A stretch of DNA of 64,000 nucleotides from Candidatus Micrarchaeia archaeon (GTDB lineage Archaea; Micrarchaeota; Micrarchaeia; Anstonellales; Anstonellaceae). This document shows positions 26,276 through 64,000 of the stretch, one piece after another. Within the stretch, counting starts at the first letter, position 1; the number at the start of each line of letters is the position of its first letter. The notes under the pieces were generated by a model, which saw nothing but the letters and a program-made list of their open reading frames with translations, was not told where the DNA came from and searched no databases. Made by a program: the position numbers and the translations under genes. The stretch lies in contig JBAZLL010000003.1 of the NCBI GenBank assembly GCA_041650255.1, positions 64,801 through 128,800 on the forward strand, written 5' to 3'.

Positions 26276-26338
26276 ATTTTCTTAACTAACGCGAGCATCT
26301 TTATAATTGTTCAATTGCTTGTATTTGCGGGAGGTTTT

Positions 26339-28141: not shown

Positions 28142-29005
28142 ATGGCAGAAACAACGACAGAAATCCATCATACGCATCCCGGCGAGAGCCACTCACACAT
28201 GCATTCAGGTGCATGTGCAGATTCAGGCACCGGAATGTATGTATTGGCATTGGCAGTAATCATCAGCACACTAATGCTTGCCGGTGCGATCTGGTTCTCC
28301 TTAAGCTCGCTCACAGCATCTGTGGACAGCCTCGGGGGCACAATTGCGGCAAAGCAGCTTAGCGTAACTGTTCCAAGCACGACAGACTCCGGCACGGGTA
28401 CGGCAGTAAAAGAGACGACTCCAACTCCAAGTGGAGTGGTTGCCGCGCAACTCGGATCCAAAGTAACTATTGACACGACCGGCAGACCCACACGCGGCGC
28501 AAGCAATGCAAAAGTAAAAATAATCGAGTTCTCGGACTTTGAATGCCCATACTGTGAACGCGGATATGGCAACATCGAGTCGGTACTCAAAGAGTTTAAC
28601 GGAAGTGTGAGCGTAACATTCATGAACTACCCGCTCTCATTCCACCCCAATGCACAGAAGGCGGCAGAGGCGGCAGAGTGCGCGAACAAACAAGGCAAAT
28701 TCTGGGAATATTACGACACCCTCTTTACAACAAGATTGCTTACTGTTAGCGACCTCAAAAAACACGCATCAGACCTCAAGCTTGACACAACTGCATTCAA
28801 CACATGTCTGGACTCTGGCGAAATGACCAAAACCGTCACCGACCAAGCAACCCTTGGCTCATCGCTCGGCGTTTCCGGCACACCAAGCTTTTTCATCAAT
28901 GGCAAATTGCTTGTAGGCGCCATTCCGGTGGACAACTATGCGGACAGCTCTGGGCAGATGCACGAGGGCCTTAGCGCAATAATAACAAAGGAGCTTGCCT
29001 CCTAA
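28142..29005 (+). CDS. Membrane-anchored DsbA-like thiol:disulfide oxidoreductase.
   Basis: The active site is FECPYCERG. DsbA-family blocks are present (PNAQKAAEAAECANKQGKFWEY, GVSGTPSFFINGKLLVGAIP). A His-rich N-terminus (HHTHPGESHSHMH) precedes a single TM. Confidence 0.75.
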   Translation: MAETTTEIHHTHPGESHSHMHSGACADSGTGMYVLALAVIISTLMLAGAIWFSLSSLTASVDSLGGTIAAKQLSVTVPSTTDSGTGTAVKETTPTPSGVVAAQLGSKVTIDTTGRPTRGASNAKVKIIEFSDFECPYCERGYGNIESVLKEFNGSVSVTFMNYPLSFHPNAQKAAEAAECANKQGKFWEYYDTLFTTRLLTVSDLKKHASDLKLDTTAFNTCLDSGEMTKTVTDQATLGSSLGVSGTPSFFINGKLLVGAIPVDNYADSSGQMHEGLSAIITKELAS

Positions 29006-29106: not shown

Positions 29107-29748
29107 ATGGAATGCAAACAACAGCCATTGTACGTTTTCTCGCTTGTGCTTTTGGTATGCGCGGCAATTCTCTCGGGCGCAATCTGGTTTTCAATAAACT
29201 CGCTTTCATCATCCGTTTCTGCAGTGGAGCAGACAATTCTTGCGAAAAATTTTGCAATTAATGTAAATGGCTCTGTGCAGGGAAAAACAAACAACACTGT
29301 TGCACCGACCCCGACGCAACCCACTCCTTCACAGCCAACTCCGACTCCGACTGCAAAAATAACCGATGTAAAAACAGTGGATGGCAACTTCAAGCAGACA
29401 ACCGAAGCAGTATGCAAAAATGGTAGTGCGGTAATTGTTCGCATGTTCACAACCACTTGGTGCCCTCACTGTGTATGGGAAAAGCCCGTAATGAAGGCGG
29501 TAACAAGCACATTCGGCGACAAAGTGGATTTGAGAATCTATGATGTTGATGTGCAAGGTCAAACCCCTGCATCGGAAGAGGCAATTTGGGCAAAATACAA
29601 TCCGGGCGGCTCAATTCCAACCCTTGTAATCGGCTGTAAATACTACAAGATTGGAAGCGGCGAATCAATCGGAGAAGATACAGAAAAAGCGGCAATCAGA
29701 AAAATAATCTGTGAAGAACTGGGAACGGACGCACCATCATTCTGCTAA
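29107..29748 (+). CDS. Membrane-anchored thioredoxin-fold protein with a CPHC active site.
   Basis: The order is an N-terminal TM, a PTPTQPTPSQPTPTPT linker, then TTTWCPHCVWEKP...GGSIPTLVIG (Trx fold with cis-Pro). Confidence 0.65.
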   Translation: MECKQQPLYVFSLVLLVCAAILSGAIWFSINSLSSSVSAVEQTILAKNFAINVNGSVQGKTNNTVAPTPTQPTPSQPTPTPTAKITDVKTVDGNFKQTTEAVCKNGSAVIVRMFTTTWCPHCVWEKPVMKAVTSTFGDKVDLRIYDVDVQGQTPASEEAIWAKYNPGGSIPTLVIGCKYYKIGSGESIGEDTEKAAIRKIICEELGTDAPSFC

Positions 29749-36480: not shown

Positions 36481-37683
36481 ATGTTTAAACTAAGCAAAAA
36501 CGATTACATAAAATATGGAACATACGTACTCATCCTTATCTTTATCCTCTCAACTGCGGGAATTTATTTGGGCAGTTTCGGTTCATCTTCAAAGACTCAA
36601 ACCGCTACTCCCGATATAATAAGCGGAAGGGCAGTTGCAAATGCGACCATCATCTCATGGGAACCCTCAATAGAAGTGTCTGGTGACAGCAAGGAGCTTG
36701 CCTCACTGGTTTCGCAGCTCAAAGCAAACGGCAGTGTAACTCACGACATAAAATTGAGCAACGGGCGAATACTCATGCTCAACGGCTCATCATCAATCGT
36801 GCAAATCTCATCTCAAATAGAACGGCTCGGGCTCAAGCCTTATTCGGATGCCGTTCTTTTTGTCGGTCCAATAACAATTATTGCCGAAAACACCACGACT
36901 TTTGCGGGACAGAACTTTAGGCAAAAGCTTGTTCCGATATTTGAAGTGGGCGACACGTTTGAAGTTTCTTTCAGCGCGCAAGCCGCCAACTCAATTGTTT
37001 ATGCCGCAAGCTCGCTTAGCATAATGCAAAGCCCTTCATTCTCCGTGCAATTAAACGCCATAAATTCATCTCTAAATTCAACGGCATTGGTAATCTCAAT
37101 TCCATGGTCCGAACGCAATGCAAATTATTCTCAATTCATAAATAGCCTTCCGAGCGGAGCTTATGCAAATATGACTTCGCGCTCGTTTGTGACATTTTCA
37201 CAAGTTGTGTCAAATGAAATATTGCAAAATATTTCCTCTTCAAAGCCGGCATATATTACCAGCCTGCAACCAAGCGTAATCTCTTTGAATCCAAAATATT
37301 CAAACGAATCAGAGGTAAAATCTTACTTTGCGCAATTCGGTCTTAATCCAATATTTGCAGAATCTTCAATTGAAATAAATTCAAACTCTTCCGACCCGAT
37401 GGTTCTTCAAAACATTTCTTCGCAATTTTTGAATTTATATCCAAATTCGTCTGCAAAATTAAGCAACGCCTATGGCATCTCGCTTAGGTTGCCGCAGGAA
37501 TTCTCATACGCGGGCAAGAATTACACTTTGGTTGAGCCAAATCCAATTGTTCTAATATCTGGTTATCCTCCATCCGAAGATGGCATTGTGAGCCTTAGCA
37601 TTATCGCAGTTGGAAACAAAGTTATACAATACACTCCCGAAGGCTACTATGTTTTGCCCAAATCAGTGCAAAACAGCTCTTAG
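36481..37683 (+). CDS. Membrane-anchored Ser/Asn-rich extracellular protein with many N-glycosylation sequons. Function unknown.
   Basis: The N-terminal TM is YGTYVLILIFILSTAGIYLG. There are at least 14 N-x-S/T sequons (NAT, NGS, NTT, NSS, NST, NYS, NMT, NIS, NES, NYT and others). Confidence 0.55.
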   Translation: MFKLSKNDYIKYGTYVLILIFILSTAGIYLGSFGSSSKTQTATPDIISGRAVANATIISWEPSIEVSGDSKELASLVSQLKANGSVTHDIKLSNGRILMLNGSSSIVQISSQIERLGLKPYSDAVLFVGPITIIAENTTTFAGQNFRQKLVPIFEVGDTFEVSFSAQAANSIVYAASSLSIMQSPSFSVQLNAINSSLNSTALVISIPWSERNANYSQFINSLPSGAYANMTSRSFVTFSQVVSNEILQNISSSKPAYITSLQPSVISLNPKYSNESEVKSYFAQFGLNPIFAESSIEINSNSSDPMVLQNISSQFLNLYPNSSAKLSNAYGISLRLPQEFSYAGKNYTLVEPNPIVLISGYPPSEDGIVSLSIIAVGNKVIQYTPEGYYVLPKSVQNSS

Positions 37684-48172: not shown

Positions 48173-48940
48173 TCAATCCACTAAAATAGTGTATTTTGAA
48201 ATATAGATTTGCGCCAACATCACGATAAGATACGGCAATATTATGAGCGAATTAAACGCAATCACAATAAGCGGTCCAATCACATGCGGAATGAACGGAA
48301 CCGAATTCACAACAAAGAGCACAATCACGTCAACAATTGAGAGCAACATTAATGCCACAACCATCCAAAGCAACACCAAAGACGGCTTTTTTCTTATAAT
48401 GCTAAAGCTTCTTTGCATCGCCCTAAACGGTCTTACCTCATCCATAACCATTGCGGTGGGCAAAAAGAGCAATCCGAGCCCGACAATCAAATTCAGCAAA
48501 GGCGCGAGATATTTTTGTATCTGATACTCGTAAGTGATAAGCTGTATAAGCAGAAGCAATATTGTGGCGATAAGGAAAATCATAAACACCGAATTTGTGT
48601 GTTTTGTAATCGCCTTTATCTCCTCTAAAGTGAGCCCCTTTAGTGTTCTCTGCCTCTTCACCACTAAATTTATGCCGACAATGGCAAAGCTCATCAAATA
48701 AAGCGAAATCAGCAAAGACGCAATCATTATCCCGCTGTCAACCGGAGTCAAATCAACGATACTTCCGGTTCTCAAATAGGCGCCTCCAAGCGCGATATAA
48801 ACCGGGTCTGCCGGGTTAATCATTCCGACAATTATCGGCAATATCATGCCGAAAAGCCCCGGAACCGAAGCCACAAGTATAAGCCAGATATTTTTAGTGT
48901 ATATTTCCCACGTATAGTCCATGATGGATTTGCCTGCCAT
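48173..48940 (-). CDS. Integral membrane protein with about 6 TM helices. Function unknown.
   Basis: The protein shows a repeated pattern of hydrophobic helices throughout its 255 aa. Confidence 0.55.
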   Translation of the reverse strand: MAGKSIMDYTWEIYTKNIWLILVASVPGLFGMILPIIVGMINPADPVYIALGGAYLRTGSIVDLTPVDSGIMIASLLISLYLMSFAIVGINLVVKRQRTLKGLTLEEIKAITKHTNSVFMIFLIATILLLLIQLITYEYQIQKYLAPLLNLIVGLGLLFLPTAMVMDEVRPFRAMQRSFSIIRKKPSLVLLWMVVALMLLSIVDVIVLFVVNSVPFIPHVIGPLIVIAFNSLIILPYLIVMLAQIYISKYTILVD

Positions 48941-49064: not shown

Positions 49065-49781
49065 ATGGAACAAAAAAACTTTACTCGCGGGCTTGCATTC
49101 ACTCTGCTTTTTGCCGCATTAGGCACTATTGCAAACTTTATCCCCCTTGCAAAAATATTGGGAATGCAGGGAAGCACTTTTAGCGCATTTGATTTAATCG
49201 CCCCTATTCCGGTGGCATTCTTAGGTTTGTCCTCCGGGCTTGCGGCAATTCTTATCGCAAAGCTCTCCGCAGGCATAGCAACCGGCGCGGCAATGGATGC
49301 CTCAACCTTTTTGCGCCTGCTTCCCCCATTGGGTGCGGGCCTGTTTTTCTGGTCATACAAGCACGACATGAAACACTCAATTCTCATACAAGCGGCGATT
49401 CCCGCACTGGCAATGGTCGCATTTATTTTCAATCCGGCAATATTTGGCACAAGTGCAATGGCTTACGCCCTGTTCTGGCTGATTCCAATCGCGGTAATTT
49501 TCCTGCCCGACTACACATATCTTCGCAGTCTTGGCGCAACTTTTTGCCAGCACGCGATAGGCTCGGTTCTTTTCCTTTACACAATTCCGGCATTGCAGAA
49601 TCCGCAAATATGGCTCGCGCTAATTCCAATCGTGGTGGTGGAGAGACTTCTCTTTGCGCTGGGGATAACAATTTCCTTCAAGGCAATCGCGCTCATGTAC
49701 GACAAATTCCATTTTGTAATACGCACGCAAAACAATTCGCCCTCGCCAATGCCCGCTCCACAAAAGAAAGAAAAAAACTAA
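49065..49781 (+). CDS. Integral membrane protein with about 6 TM helices. Function unknown.
   Basis: The 238-aa ORF is hydrophobic, Gly/Ala-rich in its helices, and ends in a polar tail (NNSPSPMPAPQKKEKN). Confidence 0.55.
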   Translation: MEQKNFTRGLAFTLLFAALGTIANFIPLAKILGMQGSTFSAFDLIAPIPVAFLGLSSGLAAILIAKLSAGIATGAAMDASTFLRLLPPLGAGLFFWSYKHDMKHSILIQAAIPALAMVAFIFNPAIFGTSAMAYALFWLIPIAVIFLPDYTYLRSLGATFCQHAIGSVLFLYTIPALQNPQIWLALIPIVVVERLLFALGITISFKAIALMYDKFHFVIRTQNNSPSPMPAPQKKEKN

Positions 49782-51952: not shown

Positions 51953-52495
51953 TTATTCATTTTCCTCTTGCGCCTCAATCCAGTCCGTCTCAAACACGTC
52001 TATATAATCCTTCACAATCTCCCCTTCAAAAACAGCCGCCGCCTCCCTATTTTCATTCATTGCCGCTTTTGAAAAATTAATTGAGCCAACAAGCACTCTT
52101 TTCCCGTCAATAATCATCATCTTTGAATGCGTGAGCTTGTAAGAAAGCGAAGCCCATTTGAGTTCAACCCCTCCCTTTTGCAATGCAGATGAAATTTTGT
52201 CAATATTGTATGAATTTGTTCGCGATTCCAAAATAACTCGCACCCTAACCCCTCTTTGCGCCGCCAGCGCCAGCTCATCCGCAACTTTTTCATTTGTAAA
52301 AACGTACATCTCAAGTGAAATGCTATTATTCGCAGACCTAATCAGCGATAATATTTCCTCCTGCGAGCCGGGCGAGAAAATCGGATATGCCAAATCGGCG
52401 CATTGCGTCTTTTGAGTGGACATCCAAATTCCGCAAATAAGCAAAATTGCAAATACTCCAATCAGCGCCCCTGCAAAAAAGCTTTTCGTATCCAA
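51953..52495 (-). CDS. Membrane-anchored single-HKD phospholipase D-family protein (Nuc-like nuclease architecture).
   Basis: An N-terminal TM (FFAGALIGVFAILLICGIWM) is followed by one HKD motif, THSKMMIIDGKRVLVGSINFS. The total length is about 180 aa. Confidence 0.75.
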   Translation of the reverse strand: MDTKSFFAGALIGVFAILLICGIWMSTQKTQCADLAYPIFSPGSQEEILSLIRSANNSISLEMYVFTNEKVADELALAAQRGVRVRVILESRTNSYNIDKISSALQKGGVELKWASLSYKLTHSKMMIIDGKRVLVGSINFSKAAMNENREAAAVFEGEIVKDYIDVFETDWIEAQEENE

Positions 52496-52616: not shown

Positions 52617-53681
52617 TCATATAAGTTTGACAAGCCCGCGTCCGATCTCATTCAAATCCGCGCCAAGAATCGCGCCTGTTTGACGTATGAATGTAAATGT
52701 GATAATCAGCGCCACCATCGGGAAAAACATCGCCTGCAAATAAAATAGCGGGATGAAATTCTTTGCCTTGTAAATCAGGCTGGATACGTCTCCCGACCTT
52801 GCGCGCAATGCATCCGATGCCCTTTGTACTCCCTCAAGGCTCACCATATCATATCCCCTGCTCACATCCAGCATAGCCGGCGGAGCCCGAAACTCCGTGC
52901 AAAAAGATTCGCCCGGAGGCTGAAGGGTCATGAGCATTGCAAGGCTGATTGGGTACACTGCGAAAAATCCTATTCCCATCGCAAGGAGCATTCCTCCTGC
53001 GCCCCTGCTCATTGGAAATATCCTTAGTATAAGCCCGATTTGAAACATAAGCGGCGCGACATATTTCATTACCGACAAAAGTCTGATTTGTATCCAATGC
53101 AACAAAAGCAAAAAGTTCAAATGCCCTATAATATATTCAAACAGGCTGGTGTAAACAGTCGTGTACCATCCACCAAGCGGTTCCACTCCGAGCGTTTCTG
53201 TTTTTGTGGAGCCGACAAGTTTGTAATAAAAGTTCACGCTGTAAAGCACGCGATAAATATCCTGCTCGCAACTAATCATTGTTTCCACCAAAAATGCCTG
53301 TGAAAATCTAAACGGATCAAGCGTAACTTTTTGGTCTGTCGGGTCAATCCCCGCATCTCTTGCATTTTGCGCAAGCACCGGGCTTGAGAAATAAGTTTGA
53401 GTTACCACGCCGGACATAACGCTCCAGGTAAGTCCCACAAGCGCCACGAGCATTCCAGCAAGCAGGAATGTGACTATCACCTGCATATATTCTCCCTTTG
53501 CCCACAAACGCAGAGAATTGATATTGAATGCAATTCCAATCATCTGCAAAAGCACAACTACAAGCAGGCTGATAAGCCCAATCACCAAAATGTTTGACGA
53601 CCACGCAAGCCAGCCCGGGCTGGCAAAAAGCGCATTCAAAAATTGTGGGCTTGCAACCAAGTCTGCTCCAGTTATCATCAA
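52617..53681 (-). CDS. Paralog family member F (354 aa). Polytopic membrane protein of unknown family.
   Basis: Shares the family motifs SLRLWAKGEYMQV (after TM1), GVEPLGGW, and the core IQIRLL...FQIGLILRIFPMSRGAGGMLLAMGIGFFAVYP. The C-terminal tail is GADLNEIGRGLVKLI. Confidence 0.7.
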   Translation of the reverse strand: MMITGADLVASPQFLNALFASPGWLAWSSNILVIGLISLLVVVLLQMIGIAFNINSLRLWAKGEYMQVIVTFLLAGMLVALVGLTWSVMSGVVTQTYFSSPVLAQNARDAGIDPTDQKVTLDPFRFSQAFLVETMISCEQDIYRVLYSVNFYYKLVGSTKTETLGVEPLGGWYTTVYTSLFEYIIGHLNFLLLLHWIQIRLLSVMKYVAPLMFQIGLILRIFPMSRGAGGMLLAMGIGFFAVYPISLAMLMTLQPPGESFCTEFRAPPAMLDVSRGYDMVSLEGVQRASDALRARSGDVSSLIYKAKNFIPLFYLQAMFFPMVALIITFTFIRQTGAILGADLNEIGRGLVKLI

Positions 53682-53730
53682 ATCATCCGATTAATTTTAC
53701 CATTTTGTTTTAAGCCTGTGCAAAGTGCCA

Positions 53731-54951
53731 TCAAATCATCCTTGTCAGGTTTGTCAAATCCATCTCGGTTCCAAGGAAAGTCGTAAGCGACCTTGCAACC
53801 TCAACATATATTACCAAATTAATAATGGGCAATATTACCGCCGCAATAACATACAAAAGCGCAATCTGATAAGGCCAGAAAACAGTTTGCGCAAATTTTT
53901 CTATCTGAGTGTCATCTCCTCTTTCCTGGGGGTTTGCAAATGCAAAGAAATTCACGACATTTTTCTCAACTGTTGCATCCTGTTTTTGCTCAACCAGCGC
54001 AGGCTTTTGAGGGTTTGGCTCATACATTCCAAACTCCTCATTAATTTGCTCCGCTCCCTCTTTCGGGCTGAAGAGTTCCTCACTCGGCGTCTGGCCTGTT
54101 AATACTGACTCCTCGCCCACCGAAAGCCTTTGCGCTTCTTCCTGTGCGCTCTTTGTAAATTGGTCAAACGAGGAATACACAATCAAATCATTCGCCATCA
54201 ATACGAGTGGATAATAAAAGAGCGAAGCAATTCCAAACCCAAGCAGTGCGCCTCCAAACTCGCGGGTAGGCTCAAATGTTCTCATAAGCAACCCGAGCGG
54301 AAGCATATAATACGGCACCGCCAAAAGGAAAAAGTCCAAAATTCTCATTTGTATAAGCACGCTCAAATAAGCGAGTATAAATCCGCTCACGCCAACAAGA
54401 AAAACATTCATCAATTGCTGAAATCCGGCAAGAGGTTCAATAGCATATCCTATTCCCATAGGGCTTGAATTCCACGTCAATTTGAAAATATATGAAAACG
54501 CCCCATTAAGCATTATCAGCACTTGGAAAATATCGTCTCCTCTCACCTTCACTTTCTGCAAAAATGCCTGCGATGCGCAAAACGGCGTAAGAGTGGGTGT
54601 GCCATACGCCGAGCACGCCTGCAAATTTTCCGCTATGATTTCTTCCGCTCCCGCCCCTTCGGACCATTTATACAAAAATGCAACATTCCAATTGCACATT
54701 CCATAAACCCATCCCGCAAGCAATATCGCGATTATCGCAGTGGCAAGCACTTGAAACATTTCAAATCTGCACCAAGCCTCAAGCTTTGAAATTCTCAACA
54801 GCTGGGATGCAAAATACGTCAGAATCAAAAAGAACGAGGTGCCAAGCAGTGCCACAAACACAAGCCCGAGCCAATTTCCTCCAAGCACATTATCAAAAAT
54901 CGCCGGCGTAAGGGAAGCGTCAAGCGACCTGCAATATGTCGGTATGTCCAT
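53731..54951 (-). CDS. Paralog family member E (406 aa). Polytopic membrane protein with an acidic/Q-rich insert.
   Basis: Family motifs: KLEAWCRFEMFQV, IEPLAGF, and the core IQMRIL...LPLGLLMRTFEPTREFGGALLGFGIASLFYYP. The C-terminal tail is GTEMDLTNLTRMI. Confidence 0.7.
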   Translation of the reverse strand: MDIPTYCRSLDASLTPAIFDNVLGGNWLGLVFVALLGTSFFLILTYFASQLLRISKLEAWCRFEMFQVLATAIIAILLAGWVYGMCNWNVAFLYKWSEGAGAEEIIAENLQACSAYGTPTLTPFCASQAFLQKVKVRGDDIFQVLIMLNGAFSYIFKLTWNSSPMGIGYAIEPLAGFQQLMNVFLVGVSGFILAYLSVLIQMRILDFFLLAVPYYMLPLGLLMRTFEPTREFGGALLGFGIASLFYYPLVLMANDLIVYSSFDQFTKSAQEEAQRLSVGEESVLTGQTPSEELFSPKEGAEQINEEFGMYEPNPQKPALVEQKQDATVEKNVVNFFAFANPQERGDDTQIEKFAQTVFWPYQIALLYVIAAVILPIINLVIYVEVARSLTTFLGTEMDLTNLTRMI

Positions 54952-54960
54952 TCATTACAC

Positions 54961-56562
54961 CTAAAATATTTTTTCAAACATGCTCAAATCAATCTCTGTT
55001 CCCAGCAGTTTTGTGAACTCCTTAATCATTGTAAGCGTTATGAAAATATTGAATAATGGCACAAGTATTGAAACTATAAGCACATAAAACACTGTCGTTG
55101 AAATAAGCGTCAGCATATACGTTGCCAAAAATATCGTAATCAGCGAAGAGGGTAGCGAGCCTGTGACAAACTGAAGCAGACCAAACGCAAGCAATGTGCC
55201 CCATCCCGCGTTTTGTATAAATTCTTTTAAGAAAGTAAGCGCGCCGAAAGTGGACAGCTTGAAAAAGCACACCGCTCCCTGCCCCTGTTTACTGCTAAAA
55301 TCCGCACACGCCTTGTAATTATCAAATACCTCGTCGCTTCCGCTTAGTTGCACTATTTTCCCCTCATTCCCAACCCAGTCTGAAACGGAACGTTGCCCTG
55401 CAAATTGTGCATACAAATAATTCTCAAGTGCAATCGCGCTCACGTTCAACACGAACGGGAACACAAAGAAAAATCCGATTGCAATCGCAATAAGTACATT
55501 CCCAACTCTTTCAACTCCAAATGAGCGCAAAAAGAGTCCGAGGGGCACAAGCACAATCATCAGCCGTGTTTGCACAAACATCAAAAACCAAAGTTGCACA
55601 TACCATGCGCCAACCGCAACCGCTAGTGATGAGAGCATCATTCCAAGCGAATCAAAAATCGGTCTGAAAGCCGGTGCAAATGAAAACGATATTCCGATAA
55701 CTCCTGCCGGTCTAAAATACGGTGTAAGATTTCCAATCATTGACAAAAATGCGGTAATTGAGGTCATTGTTACGAACTCATAAATAATCGTGTTTCTCAC
55801 GGTTTCCGCAAAATTAATCGCGCTGTCAATTTGGAAAAGACCGATTCCAAGCGCATTTTTCGTCTCGTGAATACTCACAAGCACAAATGCGCTTGAGAGC
55901 ACGGTCAAAATAAGAAGCGACTTTGCGACATTTGACAAAAACTGCTTTGACCATGCCTGTATTCTCGCGCCGAGAATTCCAGACAGCATATATCCCAGTG
56001 TGCCAAAAACCGCCAATATAAGCAGTACCTTATACGCCAAATCAATCCATCCATAATCCGGCTGGTATATGTCTCCCGAATTTGTGTGCGGGCTCCACAT
56101 CTCCTGTGTAAAAACATCTGGAATAAGCCAGCCAAACATTTTTGCACTCGGCACCCCTGATGCGACAAACAGCACGACTGTTAGGCAGGCAATCAGCAAA
56201 AATTTATTTTTCATTCCAAAATTTTGCACGGCCTCCACTGATTTGACAATAGGCGAATCTTCAGAAATTTTCCAGCCGCCCGCATTTTCCAATTCAAATT
56301 TCTTATAATTTTTTTCCAGCTTTTTCGTGCTCTTCATTTCAAAAAATCCCTTAATAATTTTTTTATCATCGCTTTTATTTTGTATCCCGTCCAAATTTTC
56401 CAATCCGTATTTTTTTTCATCTTTTGCGGGCTCGTTCGCATATTCAGATACCTTTTGTGTTTTATCTTCAGACGCCCCACTAATTTGTTCATACGCGCCG
56501 ACAATTTCTCTATCCAAATTCGCGCCATCGCCTTTTTCTTTCATCCTGTCGGTTTTTTCCAT
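54961..56562 (-). CDS. Paralog family member D (533 aa). It has a hydrophilic N-terminal approximately 120 aa followed by a polytopic membrane domain.
   Basis: Family motifs: IQAWSKQFLSNV, and the core VQLWFL...VPLGLFLRSFGVERVGNVLIAIAIGFFFVFP. The C-terminal tail is GTEIDLSMFEKIF. Confidence 0.7.
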   Translation of the reverse strand: MEKTDRMKEKGDGANLDREIVGAYEQISGASEDKTQKVSEYANEPAKDEKKYGLENLDGIQNKSDDKKIIKGFFEMKSTKKLEKNYKKFELENAGGWKISEDSPIVKSVEAVQNFGMKNKFLLIACLTVVLFVASGVPSAKMFGWLIPDVFTQEMWSPHTNSGDIYQPDYGWIDLAYKVLLILAVFGTLGYMLSGILGARIQAWSKQFLSNVAKSLLILTVLSSAFVLVSIHETKNALGIGLFQIDSAINFAETVRNTIIYEFVTMTSITAFLSMIGNLTPYFRPAGVIGISFSFAPAFRPIFDSLGMMLSSLAVAVGAWYVQLWFLMFVQTRLMIVLVPLGLFLRSFGVERVGNVLIAIAIGFFFVFPFVLNVSAIALENYLYAQFAGQRSVSDWVGNEGKIVQLSGSDEVFDNYKACADFSSKQGQGAVCFFKLSTFGALTFLKEFIQNAGWGTLLAFGLLQFVTGSLPSSLITIFLATYMLTLISTTVFYVLIVSILVPLFNIFITLTMIKEFTKLLGTEIDLSMFEKIF

Positions 56563-56564
56563 AT

Positions 56565-58277
56565 CTATATCAGCCTGCTCAAGCCCGCAATTTCAATGTC
56601 TCCGCCAAGTGAGGGGGATAATACCTTTATTGATGCCAACGCAACCATTAGTGAAATAAATGGCGCAATAAGGCTAAATATCAGCAGTTTTGCCATGTTA
56701 TCAATCGTTCCGTTTTCGCCAAAAAGTGAATAGCCCCCTCCTGCAACCGCTCCGACTCCAACAAGCGGGCCGACCGCATCGGCAAATCCCTGCGAATATC
56801 CCTGCCAAAGCCTCTTTTCCCAGCTTTCCCTTTTAATCTCAAGAAAAGAGTTCACTTCATCTTCCCCGGTATCTTTCGTATAACATATATCCACAATCAT
56901 TTTTGTCTGCTCATCAAGCAATCCGTCTTCATTAACAAATTCTTGCCTGAAATTTGAATAAGTGTTCATATCAGAAGTGCATCTGCACGAATTCTCATTG
57001 CAATAATAATCCGTTTCCCTGCCGGAAATAGTATTTCCATATTCATCTCTTGGCGGACAGGAAAGCCCATACTCGCCGCATTCCTCTCCTTCATCAATTT
57101 CTCCGTTCTTGCAAAGCGGGCTATAATCCGGCGCACCCTTAACCGCCTGCACTTGGTCTCTTTCCACTCCTTCAAAATTTATGTCTGTGCGATAAATGTT
57201 ATATCCTATCTGCTCAATCTGCGCAGGTGTGCTGTTCCACGGACCGGTAAACGAATAGAGCACCGAGCTCCAAAACACATACATCATCGGAAACACAATG
57301 TAAAATCCTATCGCCAATGCAATAAGAAGCCCGCCCAGCCTTCGCGTGAAATACATTGAGCGGAAAAATATCCCTGCCGCCAAAAAGAACGGGAAAAATG
57401 CCAAATGCATAAAATCAATGATAAACTGCTGTGCCCGCGTAATCATCAAATTTTTCATCAGCACATCAAACACAAAGCTCAACGTTTCCACAACGGGCGT
57501 AAGCCCGGCAAGCGGCGAAACCGAGAGCGCGCCTCCCGGTGCGGGTATTCCCTTAAAGCCAAATCCTGCCGTTGAAAGCGGATATAAAATCGCATTGATT
57601 CTTACAATTGAGAGTGCCTGCCCTTCGGTTGATTTTGCCAGTATATTCAAATAATCCTCGGCGATGATAATATGACACGGTCTTTCTTTCCCCTGTGTCA
57701 GCGGCGAGCCGGAATCTGACGGATAGCATCTTGCATTCACATACGCGCTCCATTTCAGCCCGATATTTTCAACGCCGTTAATTGTCGGTGAATCTCCGAG
57801 CGTATTATATGTCGGCAGGCTCGCGCAAATTATCCCAAGCGAATTTACAATCATCAATATGCCCATCAAAATCAATGCCGTATATCCAAGCTGAATAATT
57901 TCTGATTTTACCCACGCTTTGAGCTTGTCATCCTGCATAAAGCTTGCATAAAACCACGAGAGCGTGCAAATCGCAATTCCTATTCCTAATGCTGCGGCAA
58001 TCGGGGCGCTCCAAATCCCCCACCAAAGCCCGAACTTTTCGCTTATTCCCCCGTCCTGTCCGCTTGATTGATCAACGCAACCGGACATGAAAAATAAAAT
58101 CGCAAACATTGCCGCAAACAAAATCGGCTTCAACCGCGCATTTCTCAATGCTTCAAACGCATTCAAATTCGGCGCATTCAAAATTTTATTTGCATTTTTT
58201 TGCAAAGCATCCACTGGCGCATCTTTGTGCAAAAACGATTTTTCATTTTCATCTGATTTTGCTTTTTTCATTTTCAT
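56565..58277 (-). CDS. Paralog family member C (570 aa). It has a lipobox-like N-terminus and a Cys-rich insert.
   Basis: Family motifs: KLKAWVKSEIIQL, VSPLAGLTPV, and the core QQFIIDF...LAAGIFFRSMYFTRRLGGLLIALAIGFYIVFP. The insert is CKNGEIDEGEECGEYGLSCPP...YYCNENSCRC. The C-terminal tail is GGDIEIAGLSRLI. Confidence 0.7.
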   Translation of the reverse strand: MKMKKAKSDENEKSFLHKDAPVDALQKNANKILNAPNLNAFEALRNARLKPILFAAMFAILFFMSGCVDQSSGQDGGISEKFGLWWGIWSAPIAAALGIGIAICTLSWFYASFMQDDKLKAWVKSEIIQLGYTALILMGILMIVNSLGIICASLPTYNTLGDSPTINGVENIGLKWSAYVNARCYPSDSGSPLTQGKERPCHIIIAEDYLNILAKSTEGQALSIVRINAILYPLSTAGFGFKGIPAPGGALSVSPLAGLTPVVETLSFVFDVLMKNLMITRAQQFIIDFMHLAFFPFFLAAGIFFRSMYFTRRLGGLLIALAIGFYIVFPMMYVFWSSVLYSFTGPWNSTPAQIEQIGYNIYRTDINFEGVERDQVQAVKGAPDYSPLCKNGEIDEGEECGEYGLSCPPRDEYGNTISGRETDYYCNENSCRCTSDMNTYSNFRQEFVNEDGLLDEQTKMIVDICYTKDTGEDEVNSFLEIKRESWEKRLWQGYSQGFADAVGPLVGVGAVAGGGYSLFGENGTIDNMAKLLIFSLIAPFISLMVALASIKVLSPSLGGDIEIAGLSRLI

Positions 58278-59348
58278 CTAATCCCATTTTTGTGAAAAGA
58301 ATTTCATTCCCGCTTTTATGAACGTGACTACGAGAATCATATTCATCGCGGGCAAAAATACTGCCTGAAACGCAATATACGAAAGCGTTTTTGTCATCCC
58401 GTCATTTCCAATAAAATCCTCCTTTATACTCGGAAGCATTTGCACGCTCAAACTATTATAGAACGAGCCGCTCGTGAAAAGATAATCCGTTGTGGACGAT
58501 TCCATCCCGCTGCACATATCACATCCATACTCCTCAACATAAAGCTGTGTCATTATCTGCGCATTCATCACAAATGCAAATGGCATAACGAAATAAAGTG
58601 CGAACGCGGTTGCCATCAAAAACGAACCGGCATCCCTTGTGGGCGAAAACACTCTCATGATAATTCCCGCGGGCAAAATCAAAGTCATCGCGCTCGCGTG
58701 AATTAATTGCAATCCCATCTGTTGCACCATTATGCTTGCCGCAAACGGCGTGATGAACATCACAATCAAATCAATCGCGCGGTCAATCACGTCAAAGCCT
58801 GGAAATGTCGGAAAAGAAAATCCCCATCCTGCCGCCGCTGCATAAAATCTGCTTTTCATTCCCGCCAAATACTGCACTCCAATTTTTACTCCCTCAAGTT
58901 TTATCGTGGTGGCGCTTGTAATGCATGTAACTTTTTGCAGATAATTGTTTGCCAAATCAAAACTGCTTGCGCCCCAATGGTCCGTCACTATCTTGTCTAC
59001 AACAACCGCGCTTGAGAAAATAAGAATTCCGATAAGTATACTAATCGTTACCTGATACAATTCGCTGTTTGCATAAGTTTCCCATTCGGCGTTTTTCACC
59101 GATTTTGATATCATATGTACAAGCGACGCGATAAAAATAACTGCCGCAATGCAGAGTATCGTCATATTTGAAAGCGATTGATAATCCGGCGCGGAAAGAA
59201 AATTCTCATCCCCTAAATTCGGAATTCCCGCGCCCGGATTTTGCGCAAAAACAAATGGCATGAGCATTGCAAGCACAATAGCAATCGCAAATATTGCAAG
59301 CGCTCCATTGCGCAAAATTCTGTCATTGCACAAAATTTCATCCTTCAT
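58278..59348 (-). CDS. Paralog family member B (356 aa). Signal-peptide-like N-terminus and polytopic membrane domain.
   Basis: Family motifs: AEWETYANSELYQV, and the core VQQMGLQLI...LPAGIIMRVFSPTRDAGSFLMATAFALYFVMP. The C-terminal tail is divergent. Confidence 0.7.
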   Translation of the reverse strand: MKDEILCNDRILRNGALAIFAIAIVLAMLMPFVFAQNPGAGIPNLGDENFLSAPDYQSLSNMTILCIAAVIFIASLVHMISKSVKNAEWETYANSELYQVTISILIGILIFSSAVVVDKIVTDHWGASSFDLANNYLQKVTCITSATTIKLEGVKIGVQYLAGMKSRFYAAAAGWGFSFPTFPGFDVIDRAIDLIVMFITPFAASIMVQQMGLQLIHASAMTLILPAGIIMRVFSPTRDAGSFLMATAFALYFVMPFAFVMNAQIMTQLYVEEYGCDMCSGMESSTTDYLFTSGSFYNSLSVQMLPSIKEDFIGNDGMTKTLSYIAFQAVFLPAMNMILVVTFIKAGMKFFSQKWD

Positions 59349-59351
59349 CTT

Positions 59352-60863
59352 CTACACCAATTTGCTCATTCCAAATATTCTCGGCTCTCCGCCGATTGCA
59401 ATGCTGATGTCTTTGAAAAGCGTGACGCAAATAATAATCGTGTTTGCCAAAAAGAGCAGGTTCAATGCAAACCACTGCATGCTCGTCGTGAATTGGTCAA
59501 TGATTGCGGAAAAGAAATATTCAACAGGCAATATCGGACCAAATATGGCTCCGAAATTTGCCATATAATTCATCACTATTCCAGAATTTTTCACAAACGC
59601 CTCGCTCACCGCCTTTTGCTGGCTTGCAGGAACTCTCGGATCCGAGTTTTTGCCATCGCTCCAAATCGTTTCCACTATCTTATCCGAAACGTCCTGTCCC
59701 TGCTCTTCAAATCCGCCCGGTCCCGCAATATTTTTTTGCACCCGCGCGGCAAACTCTGCCTGTGTCTCGCCCGGATTGGGCGTGCAAATCTCAAGCATGG
59801 ACTGATAATTTGTCCAGTCAATCATCGCCGGCTTTGCATCTTTTTCCCATAATGCGTTGAAATAAATCTGCTCGTTAATCCAAAGCGTGATTGGAAATAT
59901 GAAATAAAACACAAGCGCCAACGCGATAAGCGTCGCGCCTGTCTTTCTTGTAAACGGAATCGCCTTAAACGCAATCCCAAGAGGCAAAAAAACTGTAAGC
60001 GCATTTTGGTGCACGAATTGCAAAACTGTTTTTTGCACTACAACTGCCACCAGCCCGACACCTATCATGTCTGTGAGCATAACCATCGCATCCGATACCG
60101 GCGTAAGTCCGGCATTTGGTGCCAAATCAAGTGAAATACTGCTGACAAGCGGCTCTGGCAAATAAGCGCTCACTCCGAAAGTTGAAACCGGTCCAAGCAA
60201 AAATTCAAGCGTGAAAAGGCTCATGTAAATATTCATCATGTGCCCGAACATTATTCCCTTGCTCATTTCCGGCTGACCAAGTACTGTTCTTTGCGCCTCC
60301 CACATATTATCGTAAGCGCTGATGTAATCCAAATCAAATCCCTGTCCCGCAACCTCTTCCGAAATCAAAACGGCATCTTCTGTAAATGGCATGCATCCCA
60401 AAAACCAGTCAGTTTGCGCGAACAAATGATTTTCAGGCTGTGTCGAATCGGCAATATTGTATATATGCTGGTTTTCCATGCAAATTCCGGTAATTGAGCT
60501 GTCAATCGCTCCCTCACGCGGTGCCGAGAGCATTGTGCTTGATGCAACATTTTTGGCAAATATCCCGTACGCAACAAGGCTTCCCATGACAATTGCAATC
60601 ACAATAACCGTGGACACGAGCTCGTACACTTCCTGTTTTGCAAATGCTTTCACATTCGGCAGGTTGAATGCCTCGCCCACCATATAAGAGAGAGAAATAA
60701 TCAGAATCGCAAGTGCAAGCCCGACAACTACAAGGCCCCACCAATCCGGGAAAGCAATCTTTGGTGCTTCAAATCCGGTTACGGTTTGTGCATAAGTGCT
60801 TGAGCTAAGCATTACCATAGCAAGAAAAGCAAGTGCAAAAGCCTGCCTGATACCCACATTCAT
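59352..60863 (-). CDS. Paralog family member A (503 aa), the first gene of the operon. Signal-peptide-like N-terminus.
   Basis: The N-terminus is MNVGIRQAFALAFLAMVMLSSSTYAQ. Family motifs: VKAFAKQEVYEL, LAPNAGLTPV, and the core VQKTVLQFV...LPLGIAFKAIPFTRKTGATLIALALVFYFIFP. The C-terminal tail is GGEPRIFGMSKLV. Confidence 0.7.
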   Translation of the reverse strand: MNVGIRQAFALAFLAMVMLSSSTYAQTVTGFEAPKIAFPDWWGLVVVGLALAILIISLSYMVGEAFNLPNVKAFAKQEVYELVSTVIVIAIVMGSLVAYGIFAKNVASSTMLSAPREGAIDSSITGICMENQHIYNIADSTQPENHLFAQTDWFLGCMPFTEDAVLISEEVAGQGFDLDYISAYDNMWEAQRTVLGQPEMSKGIMFGHMMNIYMSLFTLEFLLGPVSTFGVSAYLPEPLVSSISLDLAPNAGLTPVSDAMVMLTDMIGVGLVAVVVQKTVLQFVHQNALTVFLPLGIAFKAIPFTRKTGATLIALALVFYFIFPITLWINEQIYFNALWEKDAKPAMIDWTNYQSMLEICTPNPGETQAEFAARVQKNIAGPGGFEEQGQDVSDKIVETIWSDGKNSDPRVPASQQKAVSEAFVKNSGIVMNYMANFGAIFGPILPVEYFFSAIIDQFTTSMQWFALNLLFLANTIIICVTLFKDISIAIGGEPRIFGMSKLV

Positions 60864-60886
60864 TGTCCAGAATTAGGTTTGTTTGC

Positions 60887-60894
60887 TTTTAAAA
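60887..60894 (-). promoter_or_regulatory. TATA-like box for the six-paralog operon.
   Basis: TTTTAAAA lies 24-31 nt upstream of the ATG at comp. 60863. This spacing recurs at other genes in the window. Confidence 0.4.
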
Positions 60895-60942
60895 CCAAAC
60901 CTCACCTGTGTCTATCACTGCATTTTTTATCTGCATCAAGGA

Positions 60943-60964
60943 TTCGGGCGCTAACCCGCCCGAA
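60943..60964. promoter_or_regulatory. GC-rich inverted repeat (8-bp arms, 6-nt spacer) in the divergent control region. Candidate operator.
   Basis: The sequence is TTCGGGCG-CTAACC-CGCCCGAA. It ends 5 nt upstream of the plus-strand TATA box, which is the BRE-proximal position. Confidence 0.4.
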
Positions 60965-60969
60965 AACCA

Positions 60970-60979
60970 TTTATAAAAA
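60970..60979 (+). promoter_or_regulatory. TATA box for the giant plus-strand gene.
   Basis: TTTATAAAAA starts 29 nt upstream of the GTG at 60999. This geometry is compatible with a leaderless transcript. Confidence 0.45.
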
Positions 60980-60998
60980 CCGCCTGCTTATTTATTGC

Positions 60999-63900
60999 GT
61001 GAAAAACAAGTCTTTGCTGCTGTTTTGGCTATTACTATTGCTATCTGCCAGTTTTTCCCAGCAAATTTGTCCCCAATGTTTCGAGAGCAGCATAAGGCTA
61101 AACCTTTCCGAATTTTCTCAAACCCGAATTGTGTACGCACAGGCAACTTATCTCAACGTGACTTTTTACACCCCAGAAGCCGACGATTCAGACTCGGCTT
61201 CGCAAATAGTCAATTCGCAAATGCAAATAGAAGTGCTCAACGCATCCGGCGCGTCCATAAGTTTTTTTGTGGACAATCAGCCGGTCAGCGATGAAAATGG
61301 CGAGCCATCCTGCCAAAACCTGATAACTGATTATGCTGGCATTGTCGAATGCAAAATAATATATGTAAAAAATCCATACACCTCCGACCCTCCGGCAATA
61401 AAATTAGATGACTGGCCCCAGGACGCGCTTCTCACCGCCCGATTGCAATATTCAAACGAAAATCCGCAGATAAAGCCATCAATCTCAAGTCCGGTGCTCA
61501 TCTCAACAAACAACAATCCCTCGCAACAATTGTACACCACATTTTTAATGGCGGCAAGTACCCCGAAAAATATGCTCATCTGTCTGCCCCTGATAATAAT
61601 ATTCGGGCTTCTCATCGCCTCATTACAATACGCCGGAAAAAATCCGCTTTCACTCTTTGACATCACCGTTCCCCGCCTGCCGAATTTGAAAAAAGTGAGA
61701 ATGAAATCTCCGACAATTCCATTGCAACTTAACATGATGGGGAGAATGTCTGCTCGCGTTATCGCAAGAAATGAGCGCGCAATCGAATCCTCATTGCTTG
61801 CGCTTTATCTTCGTTCCGGCAAAAGCAGCGGTTCACTAAAGCAGGTAATCCGCGATATGTTTCCCAGGCGTCCAATTTTAGGTTCCGCAAAAGCGTATAG
61901 CGACGCAGGCTACGATGCCTCGCTTGCAAAACTTCGTTCCCTGATAGACAGTTCCGGCGCAGACAAAAAATACCGCGACATTGCGTGGGCGGCAATAATG
62001 CGCAACATGGAAATTCGTCAGACTCTCATAATCGGACTGAAAACGACCAGCGCGGCAAGGGCAGGTCAATTCTCAAACCGGGCAAGCACAATAAGCGGGA
62101 CTCTTGACCTCATAGGCACCCGCCTTGCAAAACCATGGAAATTAATTCCCTCTCTTGCGAAAAACGAACGGCTGGACGCGCTTCCGGGGCTTCCCTATGT
62201 AGAGCGCACATTTCTCGTAGCGCAAAATTGGATTGGAAGCAAATACTCGAATCTGTCGCTTCGCCGCGCGCTGGTGAAAACACTTGTCGCCGAAACGGCT
62301 CGCTCGCTCGGTGCAAATCCGCAGGCAAAATTCATTCGCGACAATATATTCGACCACAAAAAAATCGGAGACATCCCTCACATAATAGAGCGCCTGCGCC
62401 AGGAAAGCTACATTCTTGGCAGGGCAATAGTTGACGAATACGCCCGCGCGCTCATGATGCCAATCGTGCTCAAAAAAGGCAAGGGCGAAAACGAATATTC
62501 ACTGGATACAAACGCCCTGAAAAACGTCCTTGCAATGATTAAATCTGCGCAGGAAAAAATAGATTCGGATGTGCGCTCGGGCAGAATAGATTCAACATTT
62601 CGCGAATATTATCTAAAAGAGGAAATGATGCGCAGGCTTGCCGACTACATACAAAAAAACAAAGTCGCGTTCTATGATGCGACAGGCTCCCAACTCTCGC
62701 AAAAAGAAGTCGGCGAATTTGTAAAAAATTATGCGCTTGCTTACGCGCAAAAAGCGCGTGAAATAATAATGGCGGACGGCGTTAGCACCGCAGATGGTCG
62801 CTATCCCTCCCTTACCGATTCGCGCGCAAACAAGTTAAATCCCGAAGATGTATATTCCCGTTACAACCAGCTTGTGGCAATGCTTGGTGCCTCCTCAAAA
62901 CAACTGGCGCAGGGAAAAATCCCTCTTGTAATGCTCGGGCACGACATGACAGACCTGTTTGGAAAAGCTGTCAACATCAAGGTAGCCCGCCAGCAGTTGC
63001 AAGCCCAATCCGAAGTTGAAAAATTACAGCAAATCCGCTACATGATGGAAGCCGAGCTGATGAAAAAACAGCTCTTTGATTATATAACTGGTTCGCGCGC
63101 ATTACTGGATAATTACAATAAAAAAATAGAGCCGCTTCTTGGGCAGGGCATTCTCAACAACAACTGGCTCGCGCAACTTGACCATGCAATTTCCCTAAAA
63201 AGTATCCGAGACTTGGCGGATTATTCCCGACGCGGAGAATGGGCGGCCCGCAACTATCTCACGGCCCACTATTCTTACAACACCGACTTTTTGGCGGAGA
63301 CTGAAAAAAACAATCTCAGCGTTCTTCGCCAGCTTTTTTCCAGCCAATTTGACCGGGGCTATGAAGACCTTTTCAGAAACTATGATGTCATGATACGCCG
63401 CAACCAAATGACATATCAAAGCATGAAATCCGTTTTTGAAACCTATATGCCCGGTCAAAAATGGGATGCCGCCGGCTATCAGGCATGGAAGGAAAAAGGT
63501 GTCACATATGCCGACATCAAAAAAGGAGTGTGGATAATAGATGCCCGCCAAACCATTATACCTCTTGCCTCCGGATTTGATTTTGACAAAGACGGCGCAG
63601 TCCGCTCCGCAAGATGCAATGTTGTAAACGGTCGGCTCACTTACGACCATACGGTGATTGACTTTTTGGGCTCCGATTACGCCGAACGCCCGGTGAATGC
63701 CTCTTACATGATAAAAACCGCCGACGGTCGCTGGAGACCCGGTACTCCGACAGACCCGGAAACCGCTACAATTGTACGTCAGCTCAAAAGCTATTACGCA
63801 CAGCTTTCATCTCTCAAATTCGGAGAAGGCAGGTTTGCGGATTACACTGCCGATGGCAAAGTTTCTGATGCCGCCGCAAATATGGATGCATCAGTACGTG

Positions 63901-64000
63901 GTCTTTCCAGAAAACAAATTCTTGAAAACATCGAGCTACTGCAAAATCAGCTCAAAGACCGCATGCGCCTTGTGCCCCGTTCCGCAATTGCGGATGATAT
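60999..64000 (+). CDS. Giant protein of unknown function, at least 1000 aa. It runs off the window edge and is absent from the ORF track. It has a signal peptide, a roughly 165-aa N-terminal domain, one TM helix and a large C-terminal region.
   Basis: I checked the reading frame by hand and found it open from 60999 to 64000 (codon positions divisible by 3). The N-terminus is V/MKNKSLLLFWLLLLLSASFSQQICPQC. The TM helix is MLICLPLIIIFGLLIASL. Beyond it lie at least 800 aa, apparently helix-rich, with no Walker A or other motif that I recognise. Confidence 0.7.
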   Translation, partial: MKNKSLLLFWLLLLLSASFSQQICPQCFESSIRLNLSEFSQTRIVYAQATYLNVTFYTPEADDSDSASQIVNSQMQIEVLNASGASISFFVDNQPVSDENGEPSCQNLITDYAGIVECKIIYVKNPYTSDPPAIKLDDWPQDALLTARLQYSNENPQIKPSISSPVLISTNNNPSQQLYTTFLMAASTPKNMLICLPLIIIFGLLIASLQYAGKNPLSLFDITVPRLPNLKKVRMKSPTIPLQLNMMGRMSARVIARNERAIESSLLALYLRSGKSSGSLKQVIRDMFPRRPILGSAKAYSDAGYDASLAKLRSLIDSSGADKKYRDIAWAAIMRNMEIRQTLIIGLKTTSAARAGQFSNRASTISGTLDLIGTRLAKPWKLIPSLAKNERLDALPGLPYVERTFLVAQNWIGSKYSNLSLRRALVKTLVAETARSLGANPQAKFIRDNIFDHKKIGDIPHIIERLRQESYILGRAIVDEYARALMMPIVLKKGKGENEYSLDTNALKNVLAMIKSAQEKIDSDVRSGRIDSTFREYYLKEEMMRRLADYIQKNKVAFYDATGSQLSQKEVGEFVKNYALAYAQKAREIIMADGVSTADGRYPSLTDSRANKLNPEDVYSRYNQLVAMLGASSKQLAQGKIPLVMLGHDMTDLFGKAVNIKVARQQLQAQSEVEKLQQIRYMMEAELMKKQLFDYITGSRALLDNYNKKIEPLLGQGILNNNWLAQLDHAISLKSIRDLADYSRRGEWAARNYLTAHYSYNTDFLAETEKNNLSVLRQLFSSQFDRGYEDLFRNYDVMIRRNQMTYQSMKSVFETYMPGQKWDAAGYQAWKEKGVTYADIKKGVWIIDARQTIIPLASGFDFDKDGAVRSARCNVVNGRLTYDHTVIDFLGSDYAERPVNASYMIKTADGRWRPGTPTDPETATIVRQLKSYYAQLSSLKFGEGRFADYTADGKVSDAAANMDASVRGLSRKQILENIELLQNQLKDRMRLVPRSAIADD

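Follow-up and report, generated by a model that had tools for sequence, protein, structure and literature searches.

Six ordered paralogous membrane proteins of no recognised family in Micrarchaeota, proposed as subunits of one hetero-oligomeric envelope complex

A 64-kb stretch of a contig from a Candidatus Micrarchaeia archaeon (the window) carries, on the minus strand at positions 52617-60863, a block of six consecutive genes, named A to F in block order, whose products are mutually paralogous polytopic membrane proteins. The block could not be filed under any known family or fold with the methods used, and we regard it as a new sequence family. We propose, with a probability of roughly one half, that the six proteins form a six-subunit complex containing one copy of each, which would provide a conduit or platform for exchange between the cell and a host or the environment. 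An earlier note on this DNA, drawn up from the letters alone, had suspected a DPANN-type archaeon, in agreement with the identity of protein A to a deposited hypothetical protein of Candidatus Micrarchaeia archaeon, encoded on a contig of 337 kb.

The six open reading frames (ORFs) are separated by gaps of 3, 0, 2, 9 and 49 bp, as the earlier note had given them (Table 1). The start of F is more likely the ATG at 53678, which gives 353 amino acids (aa) and an E-F gap of 52 bp, and that of C possibly lies two codons later, as in the public gene call (568 aa). The start of D is uncertain because its orthologs (about 400-450 aa) do not have the N-terminal extension of ~115 aa, rich in K and E. 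An internal Met of D (MKNKFLLIAC…) would yield a canonical signal peptide. Either the start of D is mis-assigned, or a cytoplasmic extension and an extra transmembrane (TM) helix were gained in this lineage.

The mutual paralogy of the six proteins was borne out by colinear BLASTP matches around a common core for every pair. When orthogroup profiles, one per position from A to F and built from 27 genomes, were compared with each other by hhalign, probabilities of 99.3-99.8% were obtained (E 4e-20 to 2e-29). Judged from these sequence comparisons, the relationship is far beyond chance. Searched over the whole window, the hidden Markov model (HMM) of the family matched exactly these six ORFs, one copy each, and no other.

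The family proved to be large. At E<=1e-3, an exhaustive HMMER search with a profile of the six paralogs retrieved 2,962 representative clusters (50% identity), of which 2,156 also passed E<=1e-10, and all matches bearing an organism name were from Micrarchaeota, Micrarchaeia or Anstonellaceae. Its members are annotated as hypothetical throughout, and the family is not represented in Pfam or NCBIfam. A scan of one genome per GTDB species yielded 40 loci, all from Micrarchaeota except three titled 'archaeon'. Thirty-two loci offered enough sequence, namely 27 from this genome scan, the source contig, and four further contigs from more distant lineages (L051-L054), and each of the 32 contained exactly six family genes in the order A-F, all on one strand in the 27 genome-scan loci. 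For each of the six positions, the best BLAST match was the window paralog of the same position in 27/27 genome-scan loci, and each gene of L053 and L054 scored highest against the profile of its own position. The same number and order in all loci indicate that the six paralogs are older than the radiation of the sampled Micrarchaeota.

The description of the block as a tight operon also stood, and translational coupling is plausible, since 4-bp overlaps occur at the corresponding junctions of many orthologous loci. In the genome-scan loci such overlaps were frequent at all five junctions, as would be expected if the subunits were equimolar and co-translated. Orthologs have diverged to <=30% identity, yet the number, order and tight coupling of the block are unchanged. 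A single complex is suggested by this constancy, because independent paralogs would not keep their number and order over such divergence.

The alternative that the six are independent homo-oligomeric transporters or channels for different substrates, clustered through tandem duplication alone, has in its favour that tandem duplication is the simplest origin of the block and that the outside loops differ strongly between paralogs. Independent paralogs, however, usually differ in number and order between lineages, whereas the arrangement seen here was invariant in 32/32 loci, and one paralog, B, consistently lacks a tail that the others carry. We thus consider independent transporters highly improbable. 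The suggestion of a hetero-oligomeric machine made in the earlier note is much strengthened, as a suggestion, by the six orthogroups and their fixed order in all 32 loci.

The motifs that the earlier note had listed were reproduced in a MAFFT alignment of the six proteins. In family alignments, the motif W-x-K-x-E-x-x-Q sits after TM1, and a core motif Q...L...LPxG..(L)RxF..TR..GG...P is common to the six proteins, with G296, R300, G309 and P324 (A503 numbering) conserved in >=95% of 114 family members. A variable hydrophilic insert was also found as described, Cys-rich in paralog C and acidic and Gln-rich in paralog E, and the final TM helix is followed in 5/6 proteins by a tail of the form G-x-(D/E)-x-(D/E)...L-x-K-L-I. 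Paralog B is without this tail in the window, in its orthogroup consensus from 27 loci, and in L051-L054.

Five strongly hydrophobic segments are present in each of the six proteins. The N-termini of A, B and D resemble signal peptides, a lipobox is present in C, and the N-tails of E and F are short. Two short loops contain 15-18 K+R per 100 aa and two long ones 6-7, while Cys residues amount to 1.4-2.1 per 100 aa in the long loops and 0-0.5 in the short loops and the tail. Because the short loops are basic, and the long segments are not basic and hold nearly all cysteines, the predicted topology is N-out with five TM helices and C-in, with the conserved motifs probably cytoplasmic and the variable Cys-bearing inserts probably outside. 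The predicted order would begin with an outside N-terminus, TM1, the cytoplasmic W-x-K-x-E-x-x-Q loop and TM2, continuing through an outside helical loop of 60-150 aa to TM3. The cytoplasmic hairpin LPxG..R.F..TR..GG would then lead to TM4, which would be joined to TM5 by a variable insert on the outside, 40-220 aa long but reaching ~970 aa in one lineage, the tail G-x-(D/E)-x-(D/E)…L-x-K-L-I lying in the cytoplasm at the extreme C-terminus. Conservation scores were 0.58 for the predicted cytoplasmic hairpin, 0.45 for the tail and 0.41 for loop 1, against 0.11-0.15 for the segments predicted to be outside. No internal duplication was detected when TM1-2, TM3-4 and TM5 were compared.

AlphaFold2 models of F (predicted local distance difference test, pLDDT, 85.9; predicted template modelling score, pTM, 0.80) and A (pLDDT 74.7, pTM 0.72) were all-helical, and both contained helices of 36-50 residues. 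Helices of this length are too long for the bilayer alone and would project well past the membrane.

Some orthologs are much longer than the window proteins. Paralog C reaches 1,281 aa in L051 (L051:10001-13846, P0293) and 1,112 aa in L052 (L052:2884-6222, P0289), the growth lying in an enlarged variable outside insert (up to ~970 aa, measured in L051), and the D orthologs of the same two loci have N-terminal extensions of about 300-410 aa (410 aa in L051). No Pfam domain was detected in the extra sequence of these long C and D orthologs, and a fusion (Rosetta-stone) check of unusually long family members found only extra length without a Pfam match.

Table 1. Coordinates and properties of the six-gene block and of adjoining features in the window. 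Topological terms (TM, outside) refer to predictions.
Feature	Position	Strand	Size	Remarks
Paralog A	59352..60863	-	503 aa	Signal-peptide-like N-terminus; five TM helices; TM2-TM3 outside loop ~150 aa; outside insert ~120 aa; C-terminal tail GGEPRIFGMSKLV
Paralog B	58278..59348	-	356 aa	Sole member of the six without the conserved C-terminal tail
Paralog C	56565..58277	-	570 aa	Lipoprotein-type signal (…FFMSGC); Cys-rich outside insert
Paralog D	54961..56562	-	533 aa as ORF	First ~115 aa a K/E-rich extension
Paralog E	53731..54951	-	406 aa	Outside insert acidic and Gln-rich; tail GTEMDLTNLTRMI
Paralog F	52617..53681	-	354 aa	Most compact of the six; tail GADLNEIGRGLVKLI
Giant gene	60999..64000 (first 1,000 codons)	+	1,809 aa on source contig	Start probably GTG 60999
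Intergenic region	60864..60998	.		Divergent; two TATA-like boxes, read directly from the sequence
Phospholipase D (PLD) nuclease, possible accessory gene	51953..52495	-	180 aa	Nuc/Zucchini-type; N-terminal membrane anchor; Pfam PLDc_2

The giant neighbour mentioned in the earlier note does exist, on the plus strand and divergent from the block, and runs past the end of the window. Its product has a signal peptide (MKNKSLLLFWLLLLLSASFSQQ), ~165 aa predicted to lie outside, a single TM helix at ~188-212 followed by a strongly basic stretch, and a predicted cytoplasmic part of ~1,600 aa with two CPxC pairs near the C-terminus. It gave no match in Pfam, NCBIfam, PHROGs, PADLOC or the PDB, and a homolog search retrieved one partial protein only. 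The giant gene lies divergently upstream of the block in 24 genome-scan loci and in L054. In L051 a giant gene of confirmed homology follows the block in the same orientation, behind the gene of a large Cys-rich lipoprotein; the layout of L052 is like that of L051 by gene size only, its large genes being without homology to the giant. Linkage in different arrangements points to a functional tie rather than to mere synteny. The tails of the six-gene block, which the earlier note took for possible docking peptides, are predicted to be cytoplasmic, on the same side of the membrane as the 1,600-aa domain of the giant protein, and may dock there.

The intergenic region holds two putative promoters. 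One TATA-like box, TTTTAAAA (60887-60894), is centred ~27 nt upstream of the A start codon, and a second, TTTATAAAAA (60970-60979), lies ~25 nt upstream of the GTG of the giant gene; these spacings suggest leaderless or short-leader transcripts.

Just past the end of the window, a 959-aa lipoprotein with 36 Cys (L001:1356-4235) adjoins the giant gene, and a 1,069-aa lipoprotein with 63 Cys was found in L051 (L051:18183-21392), in a lineage very different from that of the window. No homology between the two, or of either to any family, was detected, and searches of Pfam, NCBIfam, PHROGs, PADLOC and the PDB with the 959-aa protein gave no match.

These large Cys-rich lipoproteins encoded alongside the block bear on a structural reading, according to which the six proteins do form one complex, but as an anchor or spacer in the membrane, to hold the S-layer or to present variable adhesin domains to a host. 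An S-layer covers the membrane in Micrarchaeota (bioRxiv 10.1101/2021.04.28.441871). Variability is greatest in the outside segments, with an insert of ~970 aa in C and an N-terminal extension of 410 aa in D of L051, and no motor is linked to the block, as would suit a scaffold. However, the strongest conservation is on the predicted cytoplasmic side and a partner with 1,600 cytoplasmic aa is linked, both of which would be needless for a purely external scaffold. Moreover, the five-TM core is invariant in length and has conserved polar or charged residues in or near the TM helices (Q277, R300, R306). We regard a purely structural role as unlikely.

The earlier note had recognised no known family in the six proteins, and the searches made here lead to the same result, whether against Pfam, NCBIfam, PHROGs, PADLOC, PDB sequence profiles, or, with Foldseek, PDB and BFVD structures. 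Only noise-level matches were found when the six proteins, 114 relatives and seven HMM consensus sequences were searched against Pfam and NCBIfam, and the six proteins had no match in PHROGs or PADLOC. Three alignments used as sequence profiles against the PDB gave a best E of 0.15. In Foldseek searches of the A and F models against the PDB, and of one model against BFVD, no match had E<0.07, and natural proteins reached a TM-score of <=0.35 at most. The specific families proposed in the earlier note as refuting novelty, VirB6/TrbL, FlaJ/TadC, ABC or ECF permeases and FliPQR, were likewise negative with the tools applied. For T2SS-F/FlaJ/TadC, FliP/Q/R and ABC/ECF permeases, neither the six proteins nor the seven consensus sequences had a Pfam or NCBIfam match at E<=1, none of these families was among the 25 most often matched by the 114 members, and Foldseek gave no match in the PDB.

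The Tweety proteins (TTYH1-3) recurred in both Foldseek lists, at noise level (TM-score 0.11-0.19, E >=0.4). TTYH proteins have five TM helices, an N-out and C-in orientation, and an outside helical bundle formed by TM extensions. They are thus like the six proteins in gross plan, but they are eukaryotic and have no sequence similarity to them.

A role as polytopic enzymes was also considered, for example in glycan polymerization or ligation or in lipid modification, since one member had a weak Wzy_C match (E 0.01) and R, Q and E residues are conserved. The 114 members gave no reproducible enzyme-family match, Foldseek found no GT-C or Wzy-type fold, and the conserved residues are located at the tip of a predicted cytoplasmic helix hairpin rather than in an outside catalytic loop, so that an enzymatic function appears the least credible of the readings, with very little chance of being right.

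The sole recurring hint in sequence and fold, although below threshold, concerned VirB6, TrbL and the Ced proteins. The six could be extremely diverged channel subunits of VirB6/TrbL/CedA type, belonging to a domesticated system similar to type IV secretion systems (T4SS) for the transfer or uptake of DNA or protein. Their inferred plan, with N-out, five TM helices, a large outside TM2-TM3 loop and C-in, is the VirB6 plan known from Agrobacterium tumefaciens, but such a plan is not family-specific. Tandem virB6 paralogs occur in Rickettsiales and a CedA/CedE pair in Sulfolobales. The six proteins are like VirB6, TrbL, CedA, CedE and TedA in size, in the predicted five-TM plan, in long helices predicted to extend beyond the membrane, and in the presence of multiple paralogs, CedA and CedE possibly forming hetero-oligomers (PMC11868833). 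CedE, a paralog of CedA with five TM helices, is structurally homologous to VirB6 (PMC11868833; PMC9905601), and host-dependent Patescibacteria retain a chromosomal T4SS with a very divergent VirB6 (PMC12102498).

Weak signals in this direction came from three independent sources. In the comparison with the solved VirB6 (TrwI of the R388 stalk, PDB 7o3v/8rt9), the F model matched 8rt9_F at E 0.54 and probability 0.57, with TM-scores of 0.29/0.35, which is below significance, although this TM-score was the highest among natural (non-designed) proteins in the top 50 Foldseek matches of that model. A phage 'TrbL' protein was third in the BFVD list (E 0.33). CedE and CedA were the NCBIfam families matched by most members (2 each of the 114; best E 2.5e-4 and 0.0099), and the CedE match of paralog C falls on the TM3-TM4 core. 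In one clade, a nuclease of the Nuc family is encoded after the operon; Nuc of pKM101 and NucT of Helicobacter pylori accompany T4SS-based DNA transfer.

Against these parallels, the Pfam family TrbL/VirB6 (PF04610) had no match at E<=1 for the six proteins, the 114 members or the seven consensus sequences. Paralog C reached 15.7 bits where the CedE cut-off is 400 (NCBIfam NF053657; CedA is NF041796), the consensus sequences matched neither CedA nor CedE, and the Ced E-values are at the noise floor, as the same table contains TorD at 7.7e-4 and KefC at 2.6e-3. With hhalign, the family and orthogroup profiles gave probabilities of 0.05-5.7% against TrwI and against a shallow, exclusively proteobacterial profile of nine MPF_T VirB6 sequences (TrwI from R388 and eight plasmid homologs), where paralog-versus-paralog controls gave 99.3-99.8%. 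Comparison of the hairpins with VirB6 and with the VirB2 pilin TrwL was negative, and VirB6 was not in the top 50 Foldseek matches of the A503 model. No VirB4/CedB-type ATPase or VirB2-like pilin was conserved nearby in the loci examined, and the family was not found on viral contigs. Unlike VirB6 and Ced systems, which have one or two such paralogs, the block has six fixed ones, and its conserved C-terminal tail and giant bitopic partner are without a T4SS counterpart.

Membership of the VirB6/TrbL/CedA group is thus not supported by the comparisons made, in which VirB6 was represented by a proteobacterial profile and CedA and CedE by their NCBIfam models; a very remote relationship may exist. 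We hold descent from such channels, with the corresponding function, to be rather unlikely, and give about one chance in five to six that a deeper profile or structure comparison would link the family to VirB6/CedA.

When 730 kb of related loci were searched by phmmer with VirB4, VirD4, VirB11 and a HerA-like ATPase, matches were obtained in L009 and L051 only. That in L009 is an ORF of 1,109 aa in LFW-29 only (L009:5653-8979, minus strand), similar to VirB4 (TrwK, E 2e-7) and to HerA/DUF87 ATPases, located ~4.7 kb downstream of F; it is not a conserved neighbour and may belong to an integrated element.

The reading that we prefer is that six different subunits, one copy each, would make up a single complex of the cytoplasmic membrane, most likely as a ring or lock-washer of six. 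TM2, TM3 and TM5, extended as very long helices, and one or two further helices would form an outward helical stalk bearing the Cys-containing inserts, which vary with paralog and lineage. On the cytoplasmic face would lie the W-K-E-Q loop, the basic TM3-TM4 hairpin R-x-F-x-x-T-R-x-x-G-G, and the acidic tails of 5/6 subunits, and these elements may fix the order of the subunits, dock the cytoplasmic domain of the giant protein, or both. The assembly may span the envelope and serve as a conduit or platform, either for moving a macromolecule or lipid between the cell and its surroundings or host or for contact with them, with energy provided by the giant partner or by an unlinked source. With B lacking the tail that the five others have, a five-plus-one asymmetry is built in, and six different subunits of this kind would be suited to an asymmetric assembly.

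Two known systems offer analogies. The mycobacterial Mce1-4 operons resemble the block in logic alone, each encoding six divergent paralogs whose order within the operon is fixed. MceA-F form a heterohexameric, envelope-spanning needle with long helices and a variable terminal region per protomer, and each Mce protein has a single TM helix and an MCE domain and works with YrbE permeases and the MkI ATPase. In contrast, each subunit here has five predicted TM helices, no permease or ATPase partner is linked, and Pfam detected no MCE domain in the six paralogs. The FliP5-FliQ4-FliR1 export gate, known from flagella and type III secretion, is a pseudo-hexameric, five-plus-one helical assembly of related helical-hairpin proteins, to which the block is analogous through its tails on five paralogs and not on B. 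The six proteins have no match to FliPQR in Pfam or Foldseek, their TM count differs, and no other secretion components are present.

Several observations weigh against a six-subunit conduit or platform. Neither the block nor its neighbourhood contains a conserved ATPase or other protein for energy coupling; a HerA/VirB4-like ATPase gene occurs within 10 kb in 2/45 loci (L009, L051), in neither case inside the operon. The giant protein has no Walker A motif, so that no motor was identified, and the lack of a linked energy source is the main weakness of the proposal. The giant protein also diverges fast between clades past its first ~300 residues, which is odd for a conserved mechanical partner, and in L053 no giant-sized gene was called among the genes flanking the block. 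The topology is derived entirely from sequence rules. Finally, the flanks differ between clades, one having the PLD nuclease and glycogen synthase and the other secF-secD, and give no consistent functional hint.

In the window, 121 bp separate F from the PLD nuclease gene, which follows it on the same strand. Among solved structures, the nuclease is closest to MitoPLD/Zucchini, Nuc of pKM101 and NucT of H. pylori (4ggj, E 2e-13; 1byr Nuc, E 3e-13; 6ehi NucT, E 2e-8), and DrmC models were matched as well. In the window's clade, 12 loci, that of the window included, have the gene downstream of F in the same orientation, seven of them directly and five with a ~300-aa gene between. The gap to F can be as small as 2-7 bp in this clade, where the nuclease may be a seventh operon gene in related genomes. 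It is not there in a second clade (L014-L035, e.g., L020:11012-13870), in which secF-secD, identified by eye from the sequence, come after the block in 16-17 loci, in the same orientation and 34-560 bp away.

The window itself is ordinary chromosome. It encodes SMC, PurD, a class I tRNA synthetase (Trp/Tyr family), a class II ribonucleotide reductase, ThyX, a DsbA-like protein, a topoisomerase, PurH, GluRS, Memo, FBPase and glycogen synthase, together with one tRNA. An origin of the block as a mobile element, virus or defence system was considered and rejected, since PHROGs and PADLOC gave no matches, no relatives were found on IMG/VR viral contigs, and the flanks are housekeeping genes. The ribonucleotide reductase ORF (20629-24204, plus strand; 1,191 aa) has its barrel domain matched in two stretches, a possible sign of an insertion such as an intein, and also contains a TSCPD domain. 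In the ThyX ORF (26054-27979, plus strand), the Thy1 domain covers residues 435-605 of 641 aa, the long N-terminal part being without a Pfam match. A DsbA-like thioredoxin-fold protein (28142-29005) and a second thioredoxin-like protein (29107-29748) are encoded on the plus strand and fit an organism that forms disulfides in secreted domains rich in Cys, for which paralog C and the 959-aa lipoprotein offer examples. Five ORFs of 238-547 aa were without a significant Pfam match (649-1713 and 48173-48940 on the minus strand; 7268-8911, 36481-37683 and 49065-49781 on the plus strand), and none belongs to the six-paralog family.

No description of the six-gene block was found in literature on Micrarchaeota, DPANN, VirB6 or giant proteins. 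To our knowledge, no dedicated apparatus for cell contact or exchange is known in Micrarchaeota, and the exchange of DPANN archaea with other cells is an open question. The module described here is widely conserved, single-copy and of eight-gene scale. It comprises the six paralogs in their fixed order and the giant bitopic protein, joined in two lineages examined by a large Cys-rich lipoprotein. The fold of F is confidently predicted (pLDDT 86), with nothing similar in the PDB. Defining the family, with ~3,000 clusters at 50% identity, would annotate thousands of proteins, and the fixed six-paralog design leads to a testable structural prediction, that of a 1:1:1:1:1:1 asymmetric assembly. 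If the block were instead an ultra-diverged VirB6/CedA system, it would extend T4SS-like machinery to DPANN archaea, which would likewise be notable. More tentatively, and with somewhat less than an even chance in our estimation, the block and its giant partner may represent a new class of envelope machine in archaea, a stalk or conduit built as a hetero-hexamer of five-TM subunits, of new fold and with no relation to Sec/Tat, to Mce or to secretion systems of types II, III, IV or VII. So far restricted to Micrarchaeota, where it occurs in all sampled lineages, such a machine may serve uptake from, or contact with, a host or the environment.

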